In this document: positions 1,757-51,819 of the stretch, piece after piece
Numbering within the stretch: the stretch's first letter is position 1
Layout: each line of letters starts with the position of its first letter
Assembly (NCBI GenBank): GCA_964347025.1
Contig: CAYFWU010000004.1
Coordinates: 3,752 to 67,751, forward strand
DNA length: 64,000 nt
Reading direction: 5' to 3'
From: an uncultured archaeon
GTDB lineage: Archaea; Aenigmatarchaeota; Aenigmatarchaeia; QMZP01; QMZT01
Translations under genes and position numbers: made by a program
Notes under the pieces: generated by a model
Seen by the model: only the letters and a program-made list of their open reading frames with translations
Database searches by the model: none
What the model was told of the DNA's origin: nothing

Positions 1757-2647
1757 TTATTTATTTCCACCGGAAAGTTTTAATAGTTTTTCCCACTCAT
1801 TGTCAATATAGTCCTGTATTTTTTTGATCACCTTCTTGTTGCCCGATTTAAACAGGTGGGAAAACCTCCCCTGGGTTCTGAGATATTCCTCGACAGGCTT
1901 TCTCTTATGGATGTTTTTTGTTATCTTGAAATTCCCGTCGTGTACTTCGTAAAGCATCCACATACCCGTTTCGACAGCGATTTTCGCGATCTCTATTGTT
2001 TTTGAAGGATCGAATTTCCAGCCGAGCGGACAGGGACATTCCACATGTATGAACGATGGCTGATTCTTCTTTTCGAGCGCTTTCTTAACCTTTTCTTTCA
2101 GATCGGCAATGAATCCTACGGAGGCGGTCGCGATGTAATGAGTTCGATGGGCAGCAACTATCTCCACTATGGGCTTCTTCCATTCCTCCTTGCCTATGGA
2201 GAACCTTCCATGAGGGCTCGTTGTCGTCCATGCCCCGAGGGGGGTCGCGGAACTTCTCTGTATCCCAGTGTTCATGTAGGCATTGTTGTCAAGGCAGACA
2301 AAACAGATCTTGTCCCCTCTCTCCAGGCTTCCTGACAACGCCTGCAACCCTATATCTAGCGTACCACCATCGCCAGCCATTGCTATTACATTTCCCTTCT
2401 TTCCCATGTCTTCAAGGGCGAGGGAAACCCCGCTGGCTATCGCGGATGCATTCTCGAACGCCCCGTGTATGTAATTAACCCCCCAGGATGTGCGCGGATA
2501 CTGGGAGCTCACGATCTCTAAGCATGAAGTGGCGTTAACTATGACGGTCTTCTTACCCGCAACCTCGAGAATGTTGCGAACAGCGATTGTTTCCGGACAA
2601 CCGCAGCAGCTCGTGGAACCCTGATAAAATCCGCATGCTAGACCCAT
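1757..2647 (-). CDS. porB: pyruvate/2-oxoacid:ferredoxin oxidoreductase, beta (TPP-binding) subunit
   Basis: 296 aa. Has an N-terminal Cys cluster (CCGCPE) and the TPP motif GDGGTLDIG. Overlaps porA by 10 nt. Confidence 0.85.
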   Translation of the reverse strand: MGLACGFYQGSTSCCGCPETIAVRNILEVAGKKTVIVNATSCLEIVSSQYPRTSWGVNYIHGAFENASAIASGVSLALEDMGKKGNVIAMAGDGGTLDIGLQALSGSLERGDKICFVCLDNNAYMNTGIQRSSATPLGAWTTTSPHGRFSIGKEEWKKPIVEIVAAHRTHYIATASVGFIADLKEKVKKALEKKNQPSFIHVECPCPLGWKFDPSKTIEIAKIAVETGMWMLYEVHDGNFKITKNIHKRKPVEEYLRTQGRFSHLFKSGNKKVIKKIQDYIDNEWEKLLKLSGGNK

Positions 2648-3765
2648 ATTAATCCTCTCCTCTCCTTTCTTACGTCATCGAAAATGTTCAGGATGTCCTC
2701 TATCTTCACATCCTTTCCTCCAAGGCCTCCGACAAATGCGCTGACCGAACGTTTCCTGGTGAGACCGCGGATTTCGTAGCAGAGAGCTCCGCCAAGACCG
2801 GGTGATATGTTCTTTTCAAGAACGCCTATTGATTTTATCCCGTTCAAGGCCTTCTTTATCTCCCCTATTGGGAAGGGACGGAAGCTCTTTATTTTCACGA
2901 GTCCCACATCCTTTATATTCTTCTCATCTATCACATGTCTTATAGTTCCGCATGTAGAGCCCATGGTCACGATAGCGTAATCAGCGGATTCCATGTTATA
3001 GGTTTCGACTAATCCGCTACCGTAACCTCTACCGAAAATTCTCTTGAATTCCGAATTCGTCCGCCTTATCACATCCTTCGCATTCCTCATGGCCTCGTGC
3101 TGATCCTTTTTGAATTCTTGGAAATAATCAGGACCAGCCCACGCTCCCTGCGTAACAGGTTTATTGAAATCCATCTTTCTCCCCTTATACTTCGGCAGGA
3201 ACTTTCTAACGAGGGTTTTATCCGCTATATCCACGGGTTCGTAAACATGAGAAAGAATGAAGCCATCTATGCATACCACTACAGGAAGCGAAACGTTAGG
3301 ATTCTCTGCTATTTTGTACGCCTGTATGGTCGTATCGAAGGCCTCCTGTGCACTCTCGCAGTAGAACTGTAACCATCCGGAATCCCTTTCAGCGAACGTA
3401 TCCGACCAGTCGCACCATATGTTCAGAGGGGAAGCTAACGAACGATTGGCGACTGCCATGACTATGGGCAGGCGCATCCCCGAAACATTATAAAGAACCT
3501 CGTGCATCAGAGCGATTCCTTGGCTGGCAGACGCCGTGAACGTTCGAACGCCTGCCGCCTGCGCGCCCAAGCATATCGACATCGCCGAATGTTCAGATTC
3601 CGCTCTGGAAAACTTGGTCCTGAATTCACCGTCTGCCACCATCTCTGATATCCTTTCAATTATATGGGTTTGCGGCGTGATGGGGTAGGCTGCAACAACA
3701 CCCGGTTCGCACAGCTTAACCGCTTCTGCTATTGCGTGGCTCCCCTCTAAAACCTTTTTTACCAT
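2638..3765 (-). CDS. porA: pyruvate/2-oxoacid:ferredoxin oxidoreductase, alpha subunit
   Basis: 375 aa. GSHAIAEAVKLC..VVAAYPITPQT is the typical N-terminus of POR/VOR alpha subunits. Confidence 0.85.
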   Translation of the reverse strand: MVKKVLEGSHAIAEAVKLCEPGVVAAYPITPQTHIIERISEMVADGEFRTKFSRAESEHSAMSICLGAQAAGVRTFTASASQGIALMHEVLYNVSGMRLPIVMAVANRSLASPLNIWCDWSDTFAERDSGWLQFYCESAQEAFDTTIQAYKIAENPNVSLPVVVCIDGFILSHVYEPVDIADKTLVRKFLPKYKGRKMDFNKPVTQGAWAGPDYFQEFKKDQHEAMRNAKDVIRRTNSEFKRIFGRGYGSGLVETYNMESADYAIVTMGSTCGTIRHVIDEKNIKDVGLVKIKSFRPFPIGEIKKALNGIKSIGVLEKNISPGLGGALCYEIRGLTRKRSVSAFVGGLGGKDVKIEDILNIFDDVRKERRGLIWV

Positions 3766-3769
3766 TCTT

Positions 3770-4024
3770 TCACTTCTCCATCTCGTTCTTTACAGCTTTG
3801 AAAGGGCATACATTTGCGCATATCAAACAGCCCTTGCAGTAATCGTAATCCACCTTCGCCTTTTTCTTCTCGATCTTCATACACCCTTCAGGACAGTGCG
3901 TTACGCATATCCCGCATCCCTTGCAGTTTTCCGTGATAATCGGTCTGAAGGTTCTCCACCCGGATTTCTTTAGACCGATTGTCGGCTTCGAGGTTACACC
4001 AGCTTTGGATATCTTCCTCTCCAT
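3770..4024 (-). CDS. porD: pyruvate/2-oxoacid:ferredoxin oxidoreductase, delta (2x[4Fe-4S]) subunit
   Basis: 84 aa with two CxxCxxCxxxCP motifs (CKGCGICVTHCP, CKGCLICANVCP). Confidence 0.85.
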   Translation of the reverse strand: MERKISKAGVTSKPTIGLKKSGWRTFRPIITENCKGCGICVTHCPEGCMKIEKKKAKVDYDYCKGCLICANVCPFKAVKNEMEK

Positions 4025-4566
4025 TACATCACCGTCTCCTCGTACGCCCTCTTAACCGCACGTACATTCTTTTTCCTGAGTTCTCCCTCAAACCTTTCCT
4101 TTATGGATTCCACCAGATTTTCAAGTGAAATCAGGCCGGTTGCCTTGGCAAACGCCCCGAGCATTACGGTGTTAACTATGGGTCTCCCCAGGACCTCCAT
4201 TGCGATCTTGTTTGCATCAACAGTGTAAACGTCGAAACCGTTGAACTTCACTTTTCTTTCAGAATTTATCAGTATGATCCCCTTCTTCGACAGGCCCTTC
4301 GTGATGTCTACTGTCCTCGGGAGAGAATCGTCCAGAACAATTACGTGATCCGGGCTGTAAACCTGCGTTCTCAGCGTGATGAAATCCTTTGAAATCCTGC
4401 AGTAGGACTGAACAGGAGATCCTCTCCTCTCCGGCCCGAACTTCGGAAAGGCCTGCGTGAACTTCCCGTCCTTGAAGGCGGCTATCGCCAGCAACTCTGC
4501 CGCTGTAACTGCCCCCTGCCCTCCCCGGCCGTGTATGACTATCTCTAGAATTTTCGTAGTTAACAC
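4024..4566 (-). CDS. porG: pyruvate/2-oxoacid:ferredoxin oxidoreductase, gamma subunit
   Basis: 180 aa. IHGRGGQGAVTAAELLA is typical of gamma subunits. It is the first gene of the porGDAB order. Confidence 0.85.
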   Translation of the reverse strand: MLTTKILEIVIHGRGGQGAVTAAELLAIAAFKDGKFTQAFPKFGPERRGSPVQSYCRISKDFITLRTQVYSPDHVIVLDDSLPRTVDITKGLSKKGIILINSERKVKFNGFDVYTVDANKIAMEVLGRPIVNTVMLGAFAKATGLISLENLVESIKERFEGELRKKNVRAVKRAYEETVM

Positions 4567-4641
4567 CCTTAGGTTTAATATCCACAGATACCTTTATAAG
4601 ATTTACTTAATGAAATACGTCGATTGTGGAGAATAATAAAC

Positions 4642-5196
4642 TTATTTAATGATCCTGCTTACCTTCCTGAATTCGTCCGTCCCTGCCCTGTCCATGACCT
4701 GGAAGATCACGGATTCTGTTGTTGTCAAGAAAATGCCTGCATGGGAAATCCTGCACATTGAGATGCTCCAGTCCATCTGTTTCCGGGAGGAAACCGCGTC
4801 ATAAACCACGTGAACATTGTAGCCTCTTTTCACTCCGTCCAGAGCCGTCTTCAGGACGCACACATGCGCTTCCAGTCCGCAGAGAACGATGTCCTTAACC
4901 TTTAATTTTCTCAGCTCCTTTTCGAACTTTTTATCCCCGAAGCAGGAGAAGTGAAGCTTTTCGAATGGCTTGAAACTGCCCAAGACCTTCGAGACCCCAG
5001 GGACTGTTCGTCCCAGCTTGTCTGGATTCTGCTCTGTCACTATTATGGGGACATTCAGGATACGGAAAGAACCCACAAGTTTCTTTATGTTTTCAGCCAT
5101 TTTGTTGAACTCAAAAATAACGGGCCTGAACTTCTCCTGGACATCTATGACCACCAGACACGTTCTCTTCCTTTCAAGTATCCCCAGTCCTTTCAT
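4642..5196 (-). CDS. isochorismatase-family cysteine hydrolase (nicotinamidase-like)
   Basis: 184 aa. Has CLVVIDVQEKF and VLCGLEAHVCV (catalytic Cys region). Confidence 0.7.
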   Translation of the reverse strand: MKGLGILERKRTCLVVIDVQEKFRPVIFEFNKMAENIKKLVGSFRILNVPIIVTEQNPDKLGRTVPGVSKVLGSFKPFEKLHFSCFGDKKFEKELRKLKVKDIVLCGLEAHVCVLKTALDGVKRGYNVHVVYDAVSSRKQMDWSISMCRISHAGIFLTTTESVIFQVMDRAGTDEFRKVSRIIK

Positions 5197-5999
5197 GGTT
5201 TCCTTATCCTTACACTGTCCTTCAGTTTCGTCCCGAATCTCTTTGAAAAATTCCCCATGTTTATCGCGATCTCTATTCTTCCGTAATCGTCCGGGAAGAG
5301 AACCACTTCATTTTTTCCGACTTCTCCGAAGGTTTTCAGGAACTTGGTCTTTATCTTTTTGTTCTTTGTCTCTATAACGACATCATCTTTGTACACTATC
5401 CCGGTCTTTTCAAAATTACTCTGCGTCACGTTTATGAAAATGCTTCCGAAGTGGTTTACATGTATTATCTCGCCCTCGGCAACACCTCTGGAAACCTTCG
5501 CTTCTCCATAGGGAGCCTTGACCAGATCTTTCTTGTCGATTTCTGGCCCGAACTCTTCTAGGCGAACACCCTTCGCCAGCCACGCAGCTGCCGGGGTGAA
5601 AACGTCGCGACCGTGGAAGACTGGCGAGACCGGCTTCCTCATGTATTTGTCATTCGTTATCTCCACTGCCTTTTCAATCCCTCCGAGAATTTTGCTGGCA
5701 GGGATCAAAACCCCGTTATCCGGTCCGATCAGGTAGTCGCCGCGTTTGGCCTTGATTATGATCGCTCTTCGCGAGGTCCCGACCCCGGGATCGACCACGC
5801 AGACGTGACAGCCGACGGGAAGGTAGCTAATGCTCTCGAGGGTCCAGGCCCCTTCTGTAACATCGAATCCTGGCAGGCCGTGTCTCAGATCAATGATTTC
5901 ACAATCAGGGCAGATATCCAATGCGACTGCCCTCATTAAACCTATCCCCTGCGTGCCCACACCGAAATCGCTCGTCAGGGAAATGAACTTTCGTTTCAT
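5193..5999 (-). CDS. SAM hydrolase / S-adenosyl-L-methionine hydroxide adenosyltransferase (DUF62) family
   Basis: 268 aa. The N-terminal LTSDFG.. motif and overall layout match the DUF62/fluorinase-like family. There is a 4-nt overlap with the downstream gene. Confidence 0.65.
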   Translation of the reverse strand: MKRKFISLTSDFGVGTQGIGLMRAVALDICPDCEIIDLRHGLPGFDVTEGAWTLESISYLPVGCHVCVVDPGVGTSRRAIIIKAKRGDYLIGPDNGVLIPASKILGGIEKAVEITNDKYMRKPVSPVFHGRDVFTPAAAWLAKGVRLEEFGPEIDKKDLVKAPYGEAKVSRGVAEGEIIHVNHFGSIFINVTQSNFEKTGIVYKDDVVIETKNKKIKTKFLKTFGEVGKNEVVLFPDDYGRIEIAINMGNFSKRFGTKLKDSVRIRKP

Positions 6000-19176: not shown

Positions 19177-19689
19177 CTATCCTGAATGCTCCCTGCTTCC
19201 CGTGATCTCTCTCTGACCAAGGTACTTCCCTGAATAACCCTCGCTCTCCCTGTCAAGCCTTACCAGAAGGAGCTGAAAGAAGCGCGTTCCTGCCTTTATT
19301 TTAACAGGAGAATCGTTAGGATTGAAAACGCTGAGCGTTAGTGTTCCCTTGAATCCGGGATCCACCCATCCGGCGTTGTTGAACATCAGGCCGATCCTGG
19401 AAAGCGAACTCCGGAGTTTGGTTATACCCCCGACATCATTCGGTAGCTCCACGCGTTCTCTCGTTCGGACGAGAACATGCGTTTTCGGAGGAAGAACCAC
19501 TTCGTTAGCCTTGATTCTTTCATATTCAGGTTCTTTCCCGAAATCTATTTCCTCTCCCTTTGCGATCAGTATCTCATCCGAAATCCTGAGATCGATTGAA
19601 GCGGGCTGTATCTGTTCGGAATCCAGAGGTTCGATAACAAGTTTTCTGTTTTCCAGAAGCTCTTTTATAGCGAATGAAGACAAAACCAT
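19177..19689 (-). CDS. dcd: dCTP deaminase (possibly bifunctional dCTP deaminase/dUTPase)
   Basis: 170 aa. LVIEPLDSEQIQPASIDLRIS and GWVDPGFKGTLTL are typical of Dcd. Confidence 0.85.
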   Translation of the reverse strand: MVLSSFAIKELLENRKLVIEPLDSEQIQPASIDLRISDEILIAKGEEIDFGKEPEYERIKANEVVLPPKTHVLVRTRERVELPNDVGGITKLRSSLSRIGLMFNNAGWVDPGFKGTLTLSVFNPNDSPVKIKAGTRFFQLLLVRLDRESEGYSGKYLGQREITGSREHSG

Positions 19690-19697
19690 TCTATCAC

Positions 19698-20222
19698 CTA
19701 GTACTCCAATCCCTTCTCCGCTTTCTTGCCCGCAGCAAATGGGTGTTTAACATCCCTCATTTCGGTCACTAAATCCGCCTTCTCCATTATATTCTTTGTT
19801 GCCCCTCTTCCGGTAATTATGAGATTGGTTTTATCAGGGAGCTTTCTAATGAGTTCAATGACTTCAGTCTCCTTGATAATCCCCGACGATATCGCAACGT
19901 TTACTTCGTCTAATACGAGCAGATCAGGCCTGTCGACCCGTTGCGTGACCCTCCTTGCGTAGAACATGGCTTCCTTCGCCCTCTCCATATCCTTTGGGGA
20001 AGGATTCTTTAGGTCCACGAAATGCTCTCCCCCGAACTGCACGACATCGAGGTTCCGAAGGTCTTTCCTGAGCAGTATCTCCCCGCTCTCCCTTCCCTTA
20101 AGAAACTGAACCACAACCACCCGCTTTCCGTATCCAAGGAACCTCATCGCTGTTCCGAATGCTGCCGATGTCTTTCCCTTTCCTTTGCCTGTGAAAACGT
20201 AAACCAGTCCCATATCAATCAT
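19698..20222 (-). CDS. cobO: ATP:corrinoid adenosyltransferase (CobO/BtuR family)
   Basis: 174 aa. Has the P-loop-like motif TGKGKGKTSAAFG, plus VVVVQFLKG and LLVLDEVNVA. Confidence 0.8.
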   Translation of the reverse strand: MIDMGLVYVFTGKGKGKTSAAFGTAMRFLGYGKRVVVVQFLKGRESGEILLRKDLRNLDVVQFGGEHFVDLKNPSPKDMERAKEAMFYARRVTQRVDRPDLLVLDEVNVAISSGIIKETEVIELIRKLPDKTNLIITGRGATKNIMEKADLVTEMRDVKHPFAAGKKAEKGLEY

Positions 20223-20911
20223 CCCCTTACTTCACATTTGTCAAAGAATTTACTTAAACCTTTCCGTATATCCTCCATTTCTTTCTGCGTGTACGGACTC
20301 TCCTTTCCGAATTTCTTGTCAAGCGTGTGTTCATTCGAAAATTTCTGTATTACGTATTTCCTCGCCCCCTCCAGCCACTTCCCTATCTTTATAAAATCCC
20401 TGGGCTTCTGTAAACGAGGGACGGCAGTCGTCCGAAACTCGTAACTAACGCCGGAGTTCATTATTATCCTTACACTCTCCCTTATCTTTTTAATGTCCAC
20501 TTTCACACCGCAGGCCTTCTCGTATCTGGAAGGAGAGGATTTTATGTCCATCGCGATGTAGTCCAAAAGTTTGTCATCAATCAGTTTCTTTAACCTTACC
20601 GGGAAACATCCATTGGTGTCGAGTTTAACGAGAAAACCCATTGACCTTATTTTTTTAATGAAACCTTCAATGTCTTTCTGAAGTAAGGGCTCGCCCCCTG
20701 TGATCACTACTGCATCAAGCAATCCTTTCCTCGATTTCAGAAAATTGAAGAAATATTTTTCTGCAATTATAGGAGTTTCTTTTGTATCGATCACAAGATC
20801 GGCGTTTTGGCAGAAAGGGCAGCGAAGGTTGCACCCCACCGTGAAGACGATGCAAGAAACCTTGTCCGGATAATCTATGAGAGAGGTCTTCTGTAAGCCT
20901 CCAATGAGCAT
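20219..20911 (-). CDS. nrdG: anaerobic ribonucleotide reductase activating enzyme (radical SAM)
   Basis: Start moved to the ATG at 20911 (MLIGGLQKTSLIDYPDK...). Has the cluster motif GCNLRCPFCQN. The track ORF's 40-aa extension overlaps the glycyl-radical ORF in another frame. Confidence 0.8.
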   Translation of the reverse strand: MLIGGLQKTSLIDYPDKVSCIVFTVGCNLRCPFCQNADLVIDTKETPIIAEKYFFNFLKSRKGLLDAVVITGGEPLLQKDIEGFIKKIRSMGFLVKLDTNGCFPVRLKKLIDDKLLDYIAMDIKSSPSRYEKACGVKVDIKKIRESVRIIMNSGVSYEFRTTAVPRLQKPRDFIKIGKWLEGARKYVIQKFSNEHTLDKKFGKESPYTQKEMEDIRKGLSKFFDKCEVRG

Positions 20912-20919
20912 AAAAACAC

Positions 20920-21075
20920 CTATTTTTTGCTTAGATTGAAGTTTTTCCTGTCTCGGAACTCCGCCTGCTTGCCGTCGTTCCACTGTCCCACTGGCCTCAG
21001 ATATCCCACTATTCTGGAATACACTTCGCACTTGGTTCTTCTCTTTTGCAGATCTTTCGATTTTTTTCCGGTCAT
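20920..21075 (-). CDS. nrdD: glycyl-radical C-terminal segment of class III RNR, encoded as a separate 51-codon ORF in frame with nrdD
   Basis: Translates to MTGKKSKDLQKRRTKCEVYSRIVGYLRPVGQWNDGKQAEFRDRKNFNLSKK, carrying the SRxxGY..WNxGKxxE glycyl-radical signature. It is preceded by TAA-GGAGGAATTGAC-ATG. Confidence 0.6.
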   Translation of the reverse strand: MTGKKSKDLQKRRTKCEVYSRIVGYLRPVGQWNDGKQAEFRDRKNFNLSKK

Positions 21076-21087
21076 GTCAATTCCTCC

Positions 21088-23133
21088 TTATTTTGTTTTC
21101 ACGGCTATCTTAACCTTGGGCTTGAATCCTATTTCCTCATCACATACAGGACAGTATTCATGTTCTCCCCGTATGTATCCGTGTTTCGGACATATTGAAA
21201 ACGTCGGGGTGATGGTAAAGTAAGGCAGTGAATAGTGTGCAGCGATCTTCTTTACGAGGGCTTTGGTCGCTGCGGGTGAGGGAGACCTCTCTCCAACAAA
21301 TCCATGTAACACCGTCCCTCCGGTGTATCTCGATTGCAGGGCGTCCTGAAGATCCAATGCCTTGAAGATATCGTCCGTATAATTTACCGGGAGCTGTGTA
21401 GAGTTCGTGTAGTAGGGGGATGCTTCAAACTTTCGGACATTATACTCGTTCGCAACCATTATACCTGGATTCAGCTTCTTGTCAAGAAGGGCGAGCCTGT
21501 ATGACGTCCCCTCCCCGGGAGTTGCCTCAAGATTGTATATGTTCCCGCTCTGCTCCTGATATTCTGAAAGCTTGTCCCTCATGAAATCCATAACCTTCAC
21601 TGCGAACTTCACTCCCTCCTTCGATGTGATATTCGTGTCAATGAAATTCATGAGACTTTCATTCATTCCTATTATACCTATCGTGGAGAAATGGTTCTTC
21701 CAGTAACTTCCCATTGCCTTCTTGGTTGTTCTGAGATAGAACCTTGAATATGGATACAATCCTTTCTCGGTGAAACTCTCTATCACCTTTCTCTTTATTT
21801 CGAGGGAATTCCTTGCTACCCCCATCAGCGAGTCGAGCCTTGCGAAATATTCGTCTTCATTTTTTGACATGTAGCCTATCCTGGGCATGTTCAGCGTGAC
21901 CACTCCTATCGACCCGGTGAGAGGATTCGCTCCGAAGAGTCCGCCTCCCCTTCTTCGCAATTCCCTGTTATCTAACCTTAGTCTACAACACATGCTCCTT
22001 ACATCTTCCGGTTTCATGTCCGAATTGATGAAGTTCGAGAAGTAAGGAATCCCGTACTTCGAAGTCATCTCCCATATTTTTTCGTAGTTGGGATCGTCCC
22101 AGTCGAATTCCTTCGTTATGTTATACGTGGGAATGGGAAAGGTGAAAACCCTCCCCTTTGCATCCCCTTCCACCATTACTTCCGCAAACGCCCGGTTGAA
22201 CATATCCATTTCTTTCTGGTATTCTCCATAGGTGGCGTCCAAGAGTTTACCACCGAGAGCGACAGCCTCACCTTTCATGAATTTCGGTATTTTTAGGTCA
22301 AGCGTGACGTTAGTGAAGGGCGTCTGGAATCCCACACGGGTAGGAACGTTTATGTTGAAAACAAATTCCTGCATTGCCTGCTTAACACCATTGTAATCGA
22401 GATTATCCTTCCTTATGTAAGGAGCAAGTAGTGTATCGAAGCTCGAAAAGGCCTGCGCCCCTGCGGCCTCTCCTTGCAGGGTGTAAAAGAAGTTCACAAG
22501 CTGTCCGAAGGCGACTCGTAAGTGCTGGGCGGGCCTGCACTCTATCTTCCCTCTCACACCCTTGAAACCACTCATTATCAGATCCCTCAGATCCCAGCCT
22601 ACACAATACGCGCCAAATATTCCCAGATCATGGACATGGAAATCTCCCGAGACGTGCGCATCCCTGATTTCCGATGGGTAGATATTGCTCAGCCAGTATT
22701 TCGAGATGATGGTCGAGGATATGTGAAAGTTCAGTCCCTGTAAAGAATACGACATGTTCGCGTTCTCTTTCACCTTCCAGTCCGTTTCATCCAGATATTT
22801 CTCCACCACGCTGACATCAGACAGCATTTTCCTGATATCTCTTATATTCTTGTGCTGTTCCCTGTAGAGAATGTAGGCCTTCGCCGTCTTTGCGTGACCC
22901 TCCTCTATCAAAACCTTTTCAACAATGTCCTGAACATCCTCCACTGTCGGAATCTTATGCCTGAATTTCGAGTTCACAACATTCACAATGCTATCAGCGA
23001 GTTCCTCCGCACGTTTCCTGTCCTTACCGCCGACCGCCTTTGCCGCTTTCCAAACAACATTAATTATCTTCTCTTTCTCAAAATCCACAATCCTTCCGTC
23101 CCTTTTCCTTATCTTTTTCACAACCATAGACAT
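21088..23133 (-). CDS. nrdD: anaerobic (class III) ribonucleoside-triphosphate reductase, large body lacking the glycyl-radical loop
   Basis: 681 aa. Has an N-terminal ATP-cone (VKKRDGRIVDFEKEKI), a conserved core and a C-terminal Cys cluster ICPKHG...YCPVC. It ends 21 residues later at TAA. Confidence 0.85.
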   Translation of the reverse strand: MSMVVKKIRKRDGRIVDFEKEKIINVVWKAAKAVGGKDRKRAEELADSIVNVVNSKFRHKIPTVEDVQDIVEKVLIEEGHAKTAKAYILYREQHKNIRDIRKMLSDVSVVEKYLDETDWKVKENANMSYSLQGLNFHISSTIISKYWLSNIYPSEIRDAHVSGDFHVHDLGIFGAYCVGWDLRDLIMSGFKGVRGKIECRPAQHLRVAFGQLVNFFYTLQGEAAGAQAFSSFDTLLAPYIRKDNLDYNGVKQAMQEFVFNINVPTRVGFQTPFTNVTLDLKIPKFMKGEAVALGGKLLDATYGEYQKEMDMFNRAFAEVMVEGDAKGRVFTFPIPTYNITKEFDWDDPNYEKIWEMTSKYGIPYFSNFINSDMKPEDVRSMCCRLRLDNRELRRRGGGLFGANPLTGSIGVVTLNMPRIGYMSKNEDEYFARLDSLMGVARNSLEIKRKVIESFTEKGLYPYSRFYLRTTKKAMGSYWKNHFSTIGIIGMNESLMNFIDTNITSKEGVKFAVKVMDFMRDKLSEYQEQSGNIYNLEATPGEGTSYRLALLDKKLNPGIMVANEYNVRKFEASPYYTNSTQLPVNYTDDIFKALDLQDALQSRYTGGTVLHGFVGERSPSPAATKALVKKIAAHYSLPYFTITPTFSICPKHGYIRGEHEYCPVCDEEIGFKPKVKIAVKTK

Positions 23134-23136
23134 CCC

Positions 23137-23586
23137 TCACCTTCTTCCTAATCTTCTAAGCTCATTTTCAAAACTTTCCACGTCCTGGAATTCTCTGTAA
23201 ACCGAGGCGAAACGTATGTAGGCAACCTTATCCGTTTTTTTCAGTTTCTTCATCACGAGCTGCCCTATCCTCTTGCTCGGTATCTCAACACCATCATCAC
23301 TCCTCAGTTCGGTTTCTATCTCATCGATCATCTTTTCTATCATCTCATTGGTAATCGGACGTTTTTCACACGCCTTCAAAATCCCGATCTTCAGTTTGTC
23401 CCTGTCGAAACGTTCGCGTTCCCCACTCTTCTTGACAACTATCAAATCCGCTGACTCGATCCTCTCGTACGTTGTGAACCTCTTCCCGCACTTCAGACAC
23501 TCCCTCCTTCTCCGGGAGGATTTCTCATCAGATTCCCTCTTGTCAATTACCTTCAGTTCCTCATTCATGCAGTAGGGACAACGCAT
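23137..23586 (-). CDS. nrdR: transcriptional repressor NrdR (zinc ribbon + ATP-cone)
   Basis: 149 aa. MRCPYC....V.DKR......RRRREC..CGKRFTTYERIE is the NrdR signature. The stop lies 3 nt before the nrdD start. Confidence 0.85.
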   Translation of the reverse strand: MRCPYCMNEELKVIDKRESDEKSSRRRRECLKCGKRFTTYERIESADLIVVKKSGERERFDRDKLKIGILKACEKRPITNEMIEKMIDEIETELRSDDGVEIPSKRIGQLVMKKLKKTDKVAYIRFASVYREFQDVESFENELRRLGRR

Positions 23587-28166: not shown

Positions 28167-28241
28167 GGGGCCGTGGTGTAGTTTGGTCTAGCATTGCAGC
28201 ATGGGGCGCTGCCGACCGGGGTTCAAATCCTCGCGGCCCCA
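28167..28241 (+). tRNA. tRNA-Pro (anticodon GGG), uninterrupted
   Basis: GGGGCCG-TG-GTGT-AGTTTGGTCTA-GCAT-T-GCAGC-ATGGGGC-GCTGC-CGAC-CGGGG-TTCAAAT-CCTCG-CGGCCCC-A. A TTTATAAT box lies about 30 nt upstream and a T-run downstream. Confidence 0.9.
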
Positions 28242-29706: not shown

Positions 29707-29819
29707 GCTGGGGTGGCCGAGTGGTTAAGGCGCAGTAGCCTTTTGAGAAATCAATGGTTGCGCAAGGTTGCTAACCCTGTGGGCTTCGGCCCGCGCAGGT
29801 TCGAATCCTGTCCCCAGCG
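29707..29819 (+). tRNA. tRNA-Ser (anticodon GCU) with a 30-nt insertion in the 5' strand of the anticodon stem
   Basis: GCTGGGG-TG-GCCG-AGTGGTTAA-GGC-G-CAG[TAGCCTTTTGAGAAATCAATGGTTGCGCAA]GG-TTGCTAA-CCCTG-TGGGCTTCGGCCCGC-GCAGG-TTCGAAT-CCTGT-CCCCAGC-G. Class II variable arm. Confidence 0.7.
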
Positions 29820-51683: not shown

Positions 51684-51819
51684 TGGGCCGGGCAGGATTC
51701 CCAACGACCTTTTGGGTGGCGAGCCTTTTTTGACTCGCGGAAGCGTCTGGAAAAGGTTCGCATTGAACCTGCGACCTTCGCGTTGTAAGCGCGACGTCAT
51801 ACCACTAGACCACCGGCCC
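51684..51819 (-). tRNA. tRNA-Val (anticodon UAC) with a 64-nt insertion in the T-loop
   Basis: Minus strand: GGGCCGG-TG-GTCT-AGTGGTA-TGAC-G-TCGCG-CTTACAA-CGCGA-AGGTC-GCAGG-TTCAA[..64 nt..]AT-CCTGC-CCGGCCC-A. The junction is ambiguous by 2 nt. Confidence 0.75.

Follow-up and report, generated by a model that had tools for sequence, protein, structure and literature searches.

Layout of the nrd locus

The subject of this analysis is a stretch of 64,000 nucleotides (nt) from an uncultured archaeon (contig CAYFWU010000004.1 of assembly GCA_964347025.1), hereafter the window, in which the genes of a class III (anaerobic) ribonucleotide reductase (RNR) lie side by side on the minus strand. The catalytic protein of this enzyme, NrdD, is represented there by an open reading frame (ORF) of 681 amino acids (aa) at 23133..21088, which is terminated by a TAA codon (21090-21088). 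Past this stop the same frame continues with GGA GGA ATT GAC ATG, and the ATG opens a second, small ORF of 51 codons (21075..20920), which encodes MTGKKSKDLQKRRTKCEVYSRIVGYLRPVGQWNDGKQAEFRDRKNFNLSKK and ends with TAG, only 12 nt lying between the two ORFs. After a further 8 nt (GTGTTTTT) comes the ATG of nrdG at 20911. The 230-aa product of nrdG (20219..20911) is the radical S-adenosylmethionine activase, as judged from its match to TIGR02495 (NrdG2; 220 bits, cut-off 131) and to Pfam Radical_SAM. Directly 5' of nrdD, with almost no gap, lies nrdR (23137..23586), whose 149-aa product has the zinc ribbon and the ATP-cone of this repressor (Pfam Zn_ribbon_NrdR, E = 1.3e-16; ATP-cone, E = 1.8e-22). 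In a word-indexed protein search, the small ORF matched a protein from a metagenome-assembled genome of Aenigmarchaeota.

An earlier note on this DNA had claimed that the 681-aa NrdD ORF is closed by an in-frame TAA, that the radical loop has a 51-codon ORF of its own and that nrdG begins 8 nt further on; this layout is borne out by the sequence. Two of its measurements needed correction. The tail of the large ORF (DEEIGFKPKVKIAVKTK) extends 17 residues, and not 21, past the last Cys of the CPVC motif of the zinc ribbon. The Shine-Dalgarno (SD)-like GGAGG (21083..21087, minus strand) does abut the stop codon as described, but its core lies 7 nt 5' of the ATG, and a distance of 6 nt is obtained only if the element is read as GGAGGA.

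The two ORFs together correspond to one NrdD

The large ORF scores above the curated cut-offs for class III RNR (NrdD), and the NrdD profiles that it matches are continued by the small ORF. In NCBIfam PRK08270 (NF006126) the large ORF covers positions 2-651 of 684 with 1050 bits (cut-off 548) and the small one positions 648-683; in Pfam NRDD (PF13597) the respective parts are 1-529 (E = 2e-183) and 530-562 (E = 7e-11) of 562; and TIGR02487 gives 518 bits for the large ORF (cut-off 326), while the small one covers 549-580 of 581 (E = 3e-10). As far as sequence comparison goes, the match of the two ORFs to NrdD is far beyond chance and the profiles divide cleanly between them. The view, already taken in the earlier note, that the small ORF is the C-terminal radical loop of NrdD is thereby confirmed.

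The large chain consists of an ATP-cone (residues 7-95, matched in Pfam), the catalytic barrel with the finger-loop residues Cys382 and Cys383, and a zinc ribbon, the ligand region of which (Cys648/His651/Cys661/Cys664, CPKH...CPVC) is encoded at 21142..21192. Both finger-loop cysteines are invariant among 60 homologues, as are C648, C661 and C664, and H651 is nearly so. The zinc-ribbon region aligns with the C...H...CPVC segment of Thermotoga maritima NrdD, and metal binding is predicted. Neither inspection of the ORF nor the profiles revealed an RxxGY glycyl-radical motif, or any other glycyl-radical motif, on this chain; the motif is carried by the separate 51-aa ORF instead.

The loop of the small protein (RTKCEVYSRIVGYLRPVGQWNDGKQAEF), assigned from Pfam NRDD, TIGR02487 and stand-alone homologues, contains the predicted radical glycine Gly24 (SRIVG24Y), which is invariant, is encoded by the GGA codon at 21004..21006 and aligns with RIVGY of T. 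maritima NrdD. An alignment of 63 stand-alone homologues showed 13 invariant residues (C16, E17, S20, R21, G24, Y25, R27, P28, W32, G35, K36, E39 and R43), and the peptide retains all of the residues that never vary in the catalytic loops of fused enzymes. Its only Pfam match is PF13597 NRDD and its NCBIfam matches are to NrdD models only. No homology to the Gly_radical domain (PF01228) of the pyruvate formate-lyase (PFL) type was found in the Pfam and NCBIfam scans, and no family dedicated to the peptide exists in Pfam, NCBIfam or PHROG. The 51-aa peptide by itself, as a query against PDB sequences, returned nothing relevant, and the alignment with T. maritima NrdD required a longer, fused C-terminus as the query. 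The invariant Cys16 could conceivably complete the zinc site and so anchor the peptide; T. maritima NrdD has no such Cys, and in some phage peptides Thr or Ala stands in its place.

The closest relative has the same split with a different junction

In a collection of 5.8 billion proteins, the closest homologue of the large subunit is P0267, a protein of 999 aa that holds a 320-aa intein and shows 89.6% identity to the window protein outside it. It is encoded at 2029-5028 of locus L243, an independent contig from a different sample. The intein is inserted after RVGFQ, the split being kept nonetheless, and P0274 and P0275 (985 aa) are listed alongside P0267. The large subunit of L243 ends at a point homologous to that in the window (VKVAVKAR* vs VKIAVKTK*), and its junction reads AGA TGA GGAGGATTGGT ATG GCT, with GGAGGA between stop and ATG. 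The small ORF that follows encodes MARKKTEKRKDLESKRTRCEVYSRIVGYLRPVNQWNDGKQAE and runs to the end of the contig. The stop is TGA in L243 and TAA in the window, and the small ORF stands in the +2 frame in the former and in frame in the latter. Comparison with related nrdD loci had been proposed in the earlier note as a check for the same stop and ATG; the split and the ATG do recur in L243, while the stop does not, and the loci L001 and L002 are fused.

Between the window and L243, the proportion of synonymous sites that differ (pS) is 0.72 for the large ORF, with rates of synonymous (dS) and nonsynonymous (dN) substitution of ~2.4 and 0.058 and a dN/dS ratio of ~0.024. For the small ORF, pS is 0.90 and the nonsynonymous proportion (pN) 0.11, and the CEVYS...GKQAE core differs at one position. 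With synonymous changes close to saturation and both ORFs nonetheless conserved, the split predates a long divergence and both pieces are under purifying selection.

These values bear on the idea that a recent nonsense mutation has turned nrdD into a decaying pseudogene, with the small ORF as a leftover frame. What might speak for it is that fused relatives come as close as 86% and 81% identity to the window protein, and that the large ORF of the window is absent from the protein collection, possibly (this is a guess) because the NCBI pipeline had flagged it as a pseudogene. However, L243 shares the split across near-saturated synonymous divergence with a low dN/dS and an almost invariant small-ORF core. 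Relative to L001, the nearest fused relative (86% identity), the linker of the window has ~45 extra nt that bear the stop, the SD element and the ATG, and the difference is therefore not a single base change. Moreover, nrdG and nrdR are intact, and there are deep clades that consist of split loci only (described below). We thus consider a recent nonsense mutation highly improbable.

Even less credit can be given to the assumption that an assembly or sequencing error created the stop. Nothing specific favors it except that the window comes from a metagenome-type assembly, whereas the split recurs in assemblies made independently of one another, from different samples and with different pipelines (Logan, JGI, ENA, NCBI and GTDB representatives), and with differing stops, frames and spacers. 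Both options had been listed in the earlier note, and both are contradicted by L243, where, in another sample, the split goes with TGA, another frame and an intein.

The split is recurrent and shows no in-frame excess

When the large subunit was compared with one genome per GTDB species, 67 loci turned out to be fused and 7 split, the latter in Aenigmatarchaeota (L003), Woesearchaeota (L030), Nanoarchaeota (L031 and L032), Saccharibacteria (L010) and further bacteria (L007 and L009). In a second scan, metagenome contigs were searched with aligned small ORFs, which yielded 27 loci with an adjacent split. Three candidates (L116, L119 and L132) were dropped, being fused genes cut by contig ends. 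The resulting set of 36 split loci includes the window and L243. The start of the small ORF was chosen with weight on the SD match; under a plain first-ATG rule, spurious overlaps of -70 to -245 nt arise.

In all 36 loci, the chain is interrupted between the zinc ribbon and the conserved (K/R)xxCEVYSRxVGY, and all three stop codons are used to end large ORFs. The distance between the ORFs ranges from -29 (overlap) to +199 nt, some of the gaps containing further stops; frame offsets of 0, +1 and +2 occur 11, 17 and 8 times, without an excess of in-frame cases, and 25 of the small ORFs are out of frame with the large ORF or overlap it. Nearly all small ORFs (35) start with ATG, and two-thirds (24) have an SD match of 5 nt or more in front of them. 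The order large ORF, small ORF, nrdG is kept in 32 of 35 split loci.

These figures are difficult to reconcile with programmed or leaky readthrough of the TAA, which would give a single NrdD of 736 residues (681, the read-through codon, GGID and 51). It is true that in the window the ORFs share a frame and are only 12 nt apart, and that L009, L083, L087 and some other loci are in frame as well. Nevertheless, in L243, the nearest relative, TGA is followed by a small ORF in the +2 frame, gaps elsewhere reach 199 nt with extra stops, and the in-frame layout of the window fits the chance expectation of about one in three. A readthrough product, besides, would not need a conserved SD element and ATG. 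TAA is also the commonest stop in the window, closing 34 of the 66 ORFs with 150 aa or more (TAG 18, TGA 14), and is therefore an ordinary stop codon in the source organism. Readthrough, the second option of the earlier note, hence appears very unlikely, with 25 of the 36 loci out of frame or overlapping and 35 having an ATG of their own, and the option of a true two-piece RNR named there is the one supported by L243, by the 36 split loci and by the profiles. Trans-splicing, or a split intein, was likewise rejected, only ~15 residues preceding the conserved core in the peptide.

Protein collections give a similar picture. The Gly loop is absent from 35 of the 120 closest homologues of the large subunit, which end 2-70 residues past the last zinc-ribbon ligand Cys, and several of these loop-less proteins are encoded on contigs of 150-450 kb. 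The small ORF had 325 matches in the word-indexed search, the best 120 of which were all 40-78 aa long. Since such candidate selection could favor short proteins, it was checked by the lengths of large-subunit homologues and by an exhaustive HMMER search of 1.84 billion cluster representatives; the latter gave 5010 matches at E <= 1e-3 and 2683 at E <= 1e-10, and the top 150 were all 48-149 aa long.

In a neighbor-joining tree of 105 NrdD cores there are at least 7 changes between the fused and the split state, with all-split clades of 11, 5 and 3 members. The split therefore arose or reverted several times and has been retained for long. Named carriers of the split or of the peptide all belong to the DPANN archaea or to the bacterial candidate phyla radiation (CPR), namely Aenigmarchaeota, Woesearchaeota, Nanoarchaeota, Diapherotrites, Micrarchaeia, Saccharibacteria and Parcubacteria; this taxonomy rests on named records, three of which say just 'bacterium' or 'archaeon'. 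Some DPANN and CPR members have fused enzymes too.

Several loci show peculiarities of their own. In the two Nanoarchaeota loci, L031 (~2300-2800) and L032 (~5000-5440), the detached radical-loop protein has an additional glutaredoxin-like CxxC domain (164 and 144 aa in total), with borderline Pfam Glutaredoxin scores of 23.3 and 22.7 bits against a cut-off of 22.9; the radical loop and a likely reductant module thus share one small protein. In the large subunits of the same loci, the second zinc pair reads CPHEH. In L123, where 156 nt separate the large and small ORFs, a segment of ~35 nt with an SD-like GGAG and ATGGTA occurs twice, and the start region of the small ORF thus appears to be tandemly duplicated. 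Some fused NrdDs (L063, L065-L073 and L078 from gut Bacilli, Clostridia and Alistipes, as well as L037 and L038) extend ~130-180 residues past the glycyl-radical loop, their ORFs being 790-890 aa long.

The break lies in a predicted flexible linker

For structure prediction, the large and small proteins were joined end to end and modeled with AlphaFold2 (AF2) from an alignment of 59 fused homologues. The model has a mean per-residue confidence (pLDDT) of 84.7 and a predicted TM-score (pTM) of 0.79. It matches the solved class III RNRs of Prevotella copri, Streptococcus thermophilus, T. maritima and phage T4 (entries including 8p2s, 4u3e and 1hk8), with Foldseek E-values of 1e-20 to 6e-33 and target-normalized TM-scores of 0.63-0.76. 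Residues 674-683 at the junction have pLDDT below 50, and the Gly-loop segment (691-730) reaches 80-90. In fused relatives this linker comprises 3 to ~40 residues. According to the model, then, the break falls in a low-confidence linker that is likely flexible. The glycyl radical domain of P. copri NrdD moves as a rigid body and, in the dATP-bound state, is wholly disordered and gone from the maps (PMC11226230); such mobility fits a module that is able to come and go.

A probable two-subunit anaerobic ribonucleotide reductase

Taken together, the locus very probably encodes a genuine two-subunit class III RNR, with the radical loop on a separate 51-aa peptide. The position of GGAGG directly after the stop suggests translational coupling and roughly equal amounts of both products. 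The peptide would then bind the large subunit non-covalently, and its SRIVG24Y loop would insert into the barrel so as to face Cys382/383. NrdG, with S-adenosylmethionine, would abstract a hydrogen from Gly24 on the free or flipped-out peptide, and the radical would move to the finger-loop Cys at each turnover, like in single-chain NrdD. Two likely benefits of such an arrangement can be proposed. The radical glycine is where oxygen cleaves glycyl radical enzymes (PMC8683613, PMC13450708), and a split enzyme would therefore lose only the 6-kDa part; oxygen damage might thus cost the cell a 6-kDa peptide rather than an 80-kDa enzyme. Furthermore, the free peptide may be an easier, more accessible substrate for the activase.

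Some points weigh against this interpretation. Split systems are known from their genes and, for the window, from a predicted structure, while we infer that the two chains assemble non-covalently and that the radical forms on the peptide, and both benefits are proposals only. The AF2 model is of an artificial fusion with an alignment of fused homologues and does not bear on binding in trans. The closest named neighbors of the window in the tree, L001 (86%) and L002 (81%), are fused, which makes the split or fused state evolutionarily labile, and the direction, fusion or fission, cannot be polarized. Finally, the large subunit of the window, as mentioned above, is missing from the protein collection.

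Comparison with known systems

With single-chain NrdD and NrdG (phage T4, Escherichia coli, T. maritima and P. copri) the window system shares the order of ATP-cone, barrel, Cys finger loop, zinc ribbon and RxxGY loop, and the adjacent activase. It differs in that the radical loop, which there is the C-terminus of the catalytic chain, is here a separate 51-aa product; the class III RNRs described and solved so far have the loop on the catalytic chain (PMC9531940, PMC11226230).

Small stand-alone proteins with a glycyl-radical loop, also phage-borne, are represented by GrcA/YfiD of E. coli and Y06I of phage T4, which are activated by the activase of their parent and supply the radical to the large catalytic body of PFL (PMC8683613, PMC13450708). 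GrcA is a homologue of the PFL C-terminus, of ~14 kDa with a disordered N-terminal half, and it serves as a backup for a PFL already equipped with a loop, whereas the window peptide is a NrdD homologue of ~6 kDa and the sole, obligate radical loop in cellular operons. The NrdD encoded next to the peptide is loop-less in the window and in 35 other operons; because the parent lacks one of its own, the peptide is an obligate subunit and not a spare. The comparison with GrcA/YfiD made in the earlier note hence holds for the logic but not for the role of a spare.

Class II NrdJa/NrdJb is similar in having the catalytic polypeptide encoded by two adjacent genes, with a C-terminal zinc-finger module on the second chain (PMC9669993). 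That enzyme is, however, B12-dependent, and its detached part comprises the reducing Cys pair, the zinc finger and an IscU-like domain, but not the radical site; in the window, the zinc ribbon stays on the large chain. In the full-text literature that we searched, with most subscription journals outside its scope, there was no description of a split NrdD or of a stand-alone radical peptide of the NrdD type. This agrees with the statement of the earlier note that no such split was known to it, and a two-subunit class III RNR is thus apparently undescribed so far.

Stand-alone peptides in phages and viruses

The small-ORF alignment detected 80 loci in IMG/VR (L161-L240). Eleven of them are fused NrdDs, some with inteins, and 68 contain a short Gly-loop ORF (e.g. 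L161 10001-10123, L185 and L192). Profile hidden Markov models, applied to flanks of up to 10 kb in both directions, found no NrdD core or NrdG near these 68 ORFs, and in 54 of the 68 the upstream flank measures 2.5 kb or more. Most of the orphan peptides are 37-77 aa long and built like the window peptide, and six have a CxxC...CxxC zinc ribbon of their own. Genes for the terminase large subunit, portal, major head protein and HNH or NUMOD3 homing endonucleases are among their neighbors; the terminase, portal and head genes indicate that these are real phage contigs. Stand-alone Gly-loop ORFs were also noted at the metagenome loci L111, L121, L125 and L143.

Genes for endonucleases of the NUMOD3 or HNH type are the commonest conserved neighbors of the orphans, one family occurring in 20 loci and often immediately upstream (examples are L205 12117-12683, L219 10606-11070, L121 2673-2906 and L125 2207-2605). 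This hints that the peptide gene travels with mobile endonucleases or is their target. In the Aeromonas phage Aeh1, the class I NrdA is reportedly split by the homing endonuclease gene mobE, with two polypeptides that reassemble (Friedrich et al., 2007). By contrast, the window has a gap of 12 nt without an inserted gene, and the phage orphans adjoin endonuclease genes but no NrdD core. A split made by a homing endonuclease in the manner of Aeh1 was accordingly rejected, the gaps (12 nt in the window, -29 to +199 nt overall) being too short for a gene.

A collection of annotated phages contained three matches, two of which were examined: a stand-alone domain in ANMV-1 and a full-length fused NrdD in PhiF1. 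ANMV-1 is an archaeal virus (KP703175.1, 38.5 kb), whose 144-aa protein AJP62049.1 (25525-25959; L241 4680-5114) is annotated as 'anaerobic ribonucleoside triphosphate reductase' and consists only of a zinc ribbon (CHDC...CPKC) and the Gly loop. No NrdD core or NrdG could be detected in this record even at E <= 10. The paper on ANMV-1 (2015) read the 144-aa protein as an RNR, so that the virus was said to encode an oxygen-sensitive reductase (PMC4372165).

From the phage orphans it is evident that the module has a use of its own, and they are the closest parallel to Y06I of T4; beside hosts with a loop of their own, they may fit the role of a spare. On the other hand, the presence of the peptide in phages without NrdD or NrdG could be taken as a sign that it is mainly a regulator or decoy, which titrates NrdG or gates the large subunit and so could disturb activation of the host RNR, the radical of the large subunit coming from elsewhere. 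This seems quite unlikely to us: the large subunit has no other glycyl-radical motif, the peptide retains all catalytic-loop invariants of fused enzymes, the order of large ORF, small ORF and nrdG is conserved, and no alternative radical source is encoded nearby.

If the peptide is a radical-bearing subunit, as we believe, a further step may be considered, namely that it is a freely exchangeable radical cartridge, activated off the enzyme by NrdG and swapped after oxygen damage, and that phages encode cartridges of their own, minimal or with their own zinc ribbon, which sustain or take over the anaerobic dNTP supply of the host. We regard this extended proposal, taken as a whole, as a serious possibility, though slightly more doubtful than probable. 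If true, the cartridge would be the first autonomous glycyl-radical cofactor system outside PFL, and a common one in DPANN, CPR and their viruses.

Class III RNR is a textbook glycyl radical enzyme with the radical on its own C-terminus, and a natural, separate 6-kDa radical subunit alters this picture. It bears on an open question raised in a review of June 2026, which knows spare-part radical proteins only for formate lyases: whether such proteins exist for glycyl radical enzymes other than PFL (PMC13450708). The peptide described here may be the first spare-part radical module outside PFL. A split NrdD is also a ready system in which to study how the activase reaches the glycine, the free peptide being a natural substrate, and it suggests how episymbiotic DPANN and CPR organisms, as well as phages, economize on an oxygen-fragile essential enzyme. 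There is a practical consequence for annotation too, as a split nrdD can be taken for a truncated gene, and phage peptides are mislabeled as full RNRs, as in the case of the 144-aa 'nrdD' of ANMV-1.

Neighboring genes and tRNA matches

Downstream of nrdG, and overlapping its end, lies a gene for an ATP:corrinoid adenosyltransferase-like protein of the CobO/BtuR type (19698-20222, minus strand; Pfam CobA_CobO_BtuR, E = 1.2e-53), which is followed by a gene for dCTP deaminase (19177-19689, minus strand; Pfam DCD, E = 1.1e-35). A corrinoid adenosyltransferase gene between nrdG and the dCTP deaminase gene is odd company for a B12-independent RNR. The nrd operon is headed by a gene for a bacterial-type NrdR repressor, in a contig whose small ORF matches Aenigmarchaeota, i.e. 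a DPANN archaeon; this combination suggests that the whole nrdR-nrdD-nrdG cassette was gained horizontally.

Two Rfam tRNA matches were recorded in the window, one of 113 nt at 29707-29819 (plus strand), which probably contains an intron, and one of only 56 nt at 51764-51819 (minus strand). ARAGORN called neither of them, and its sole tRNA in the window is a tRNA-Pro at 28167-28241.

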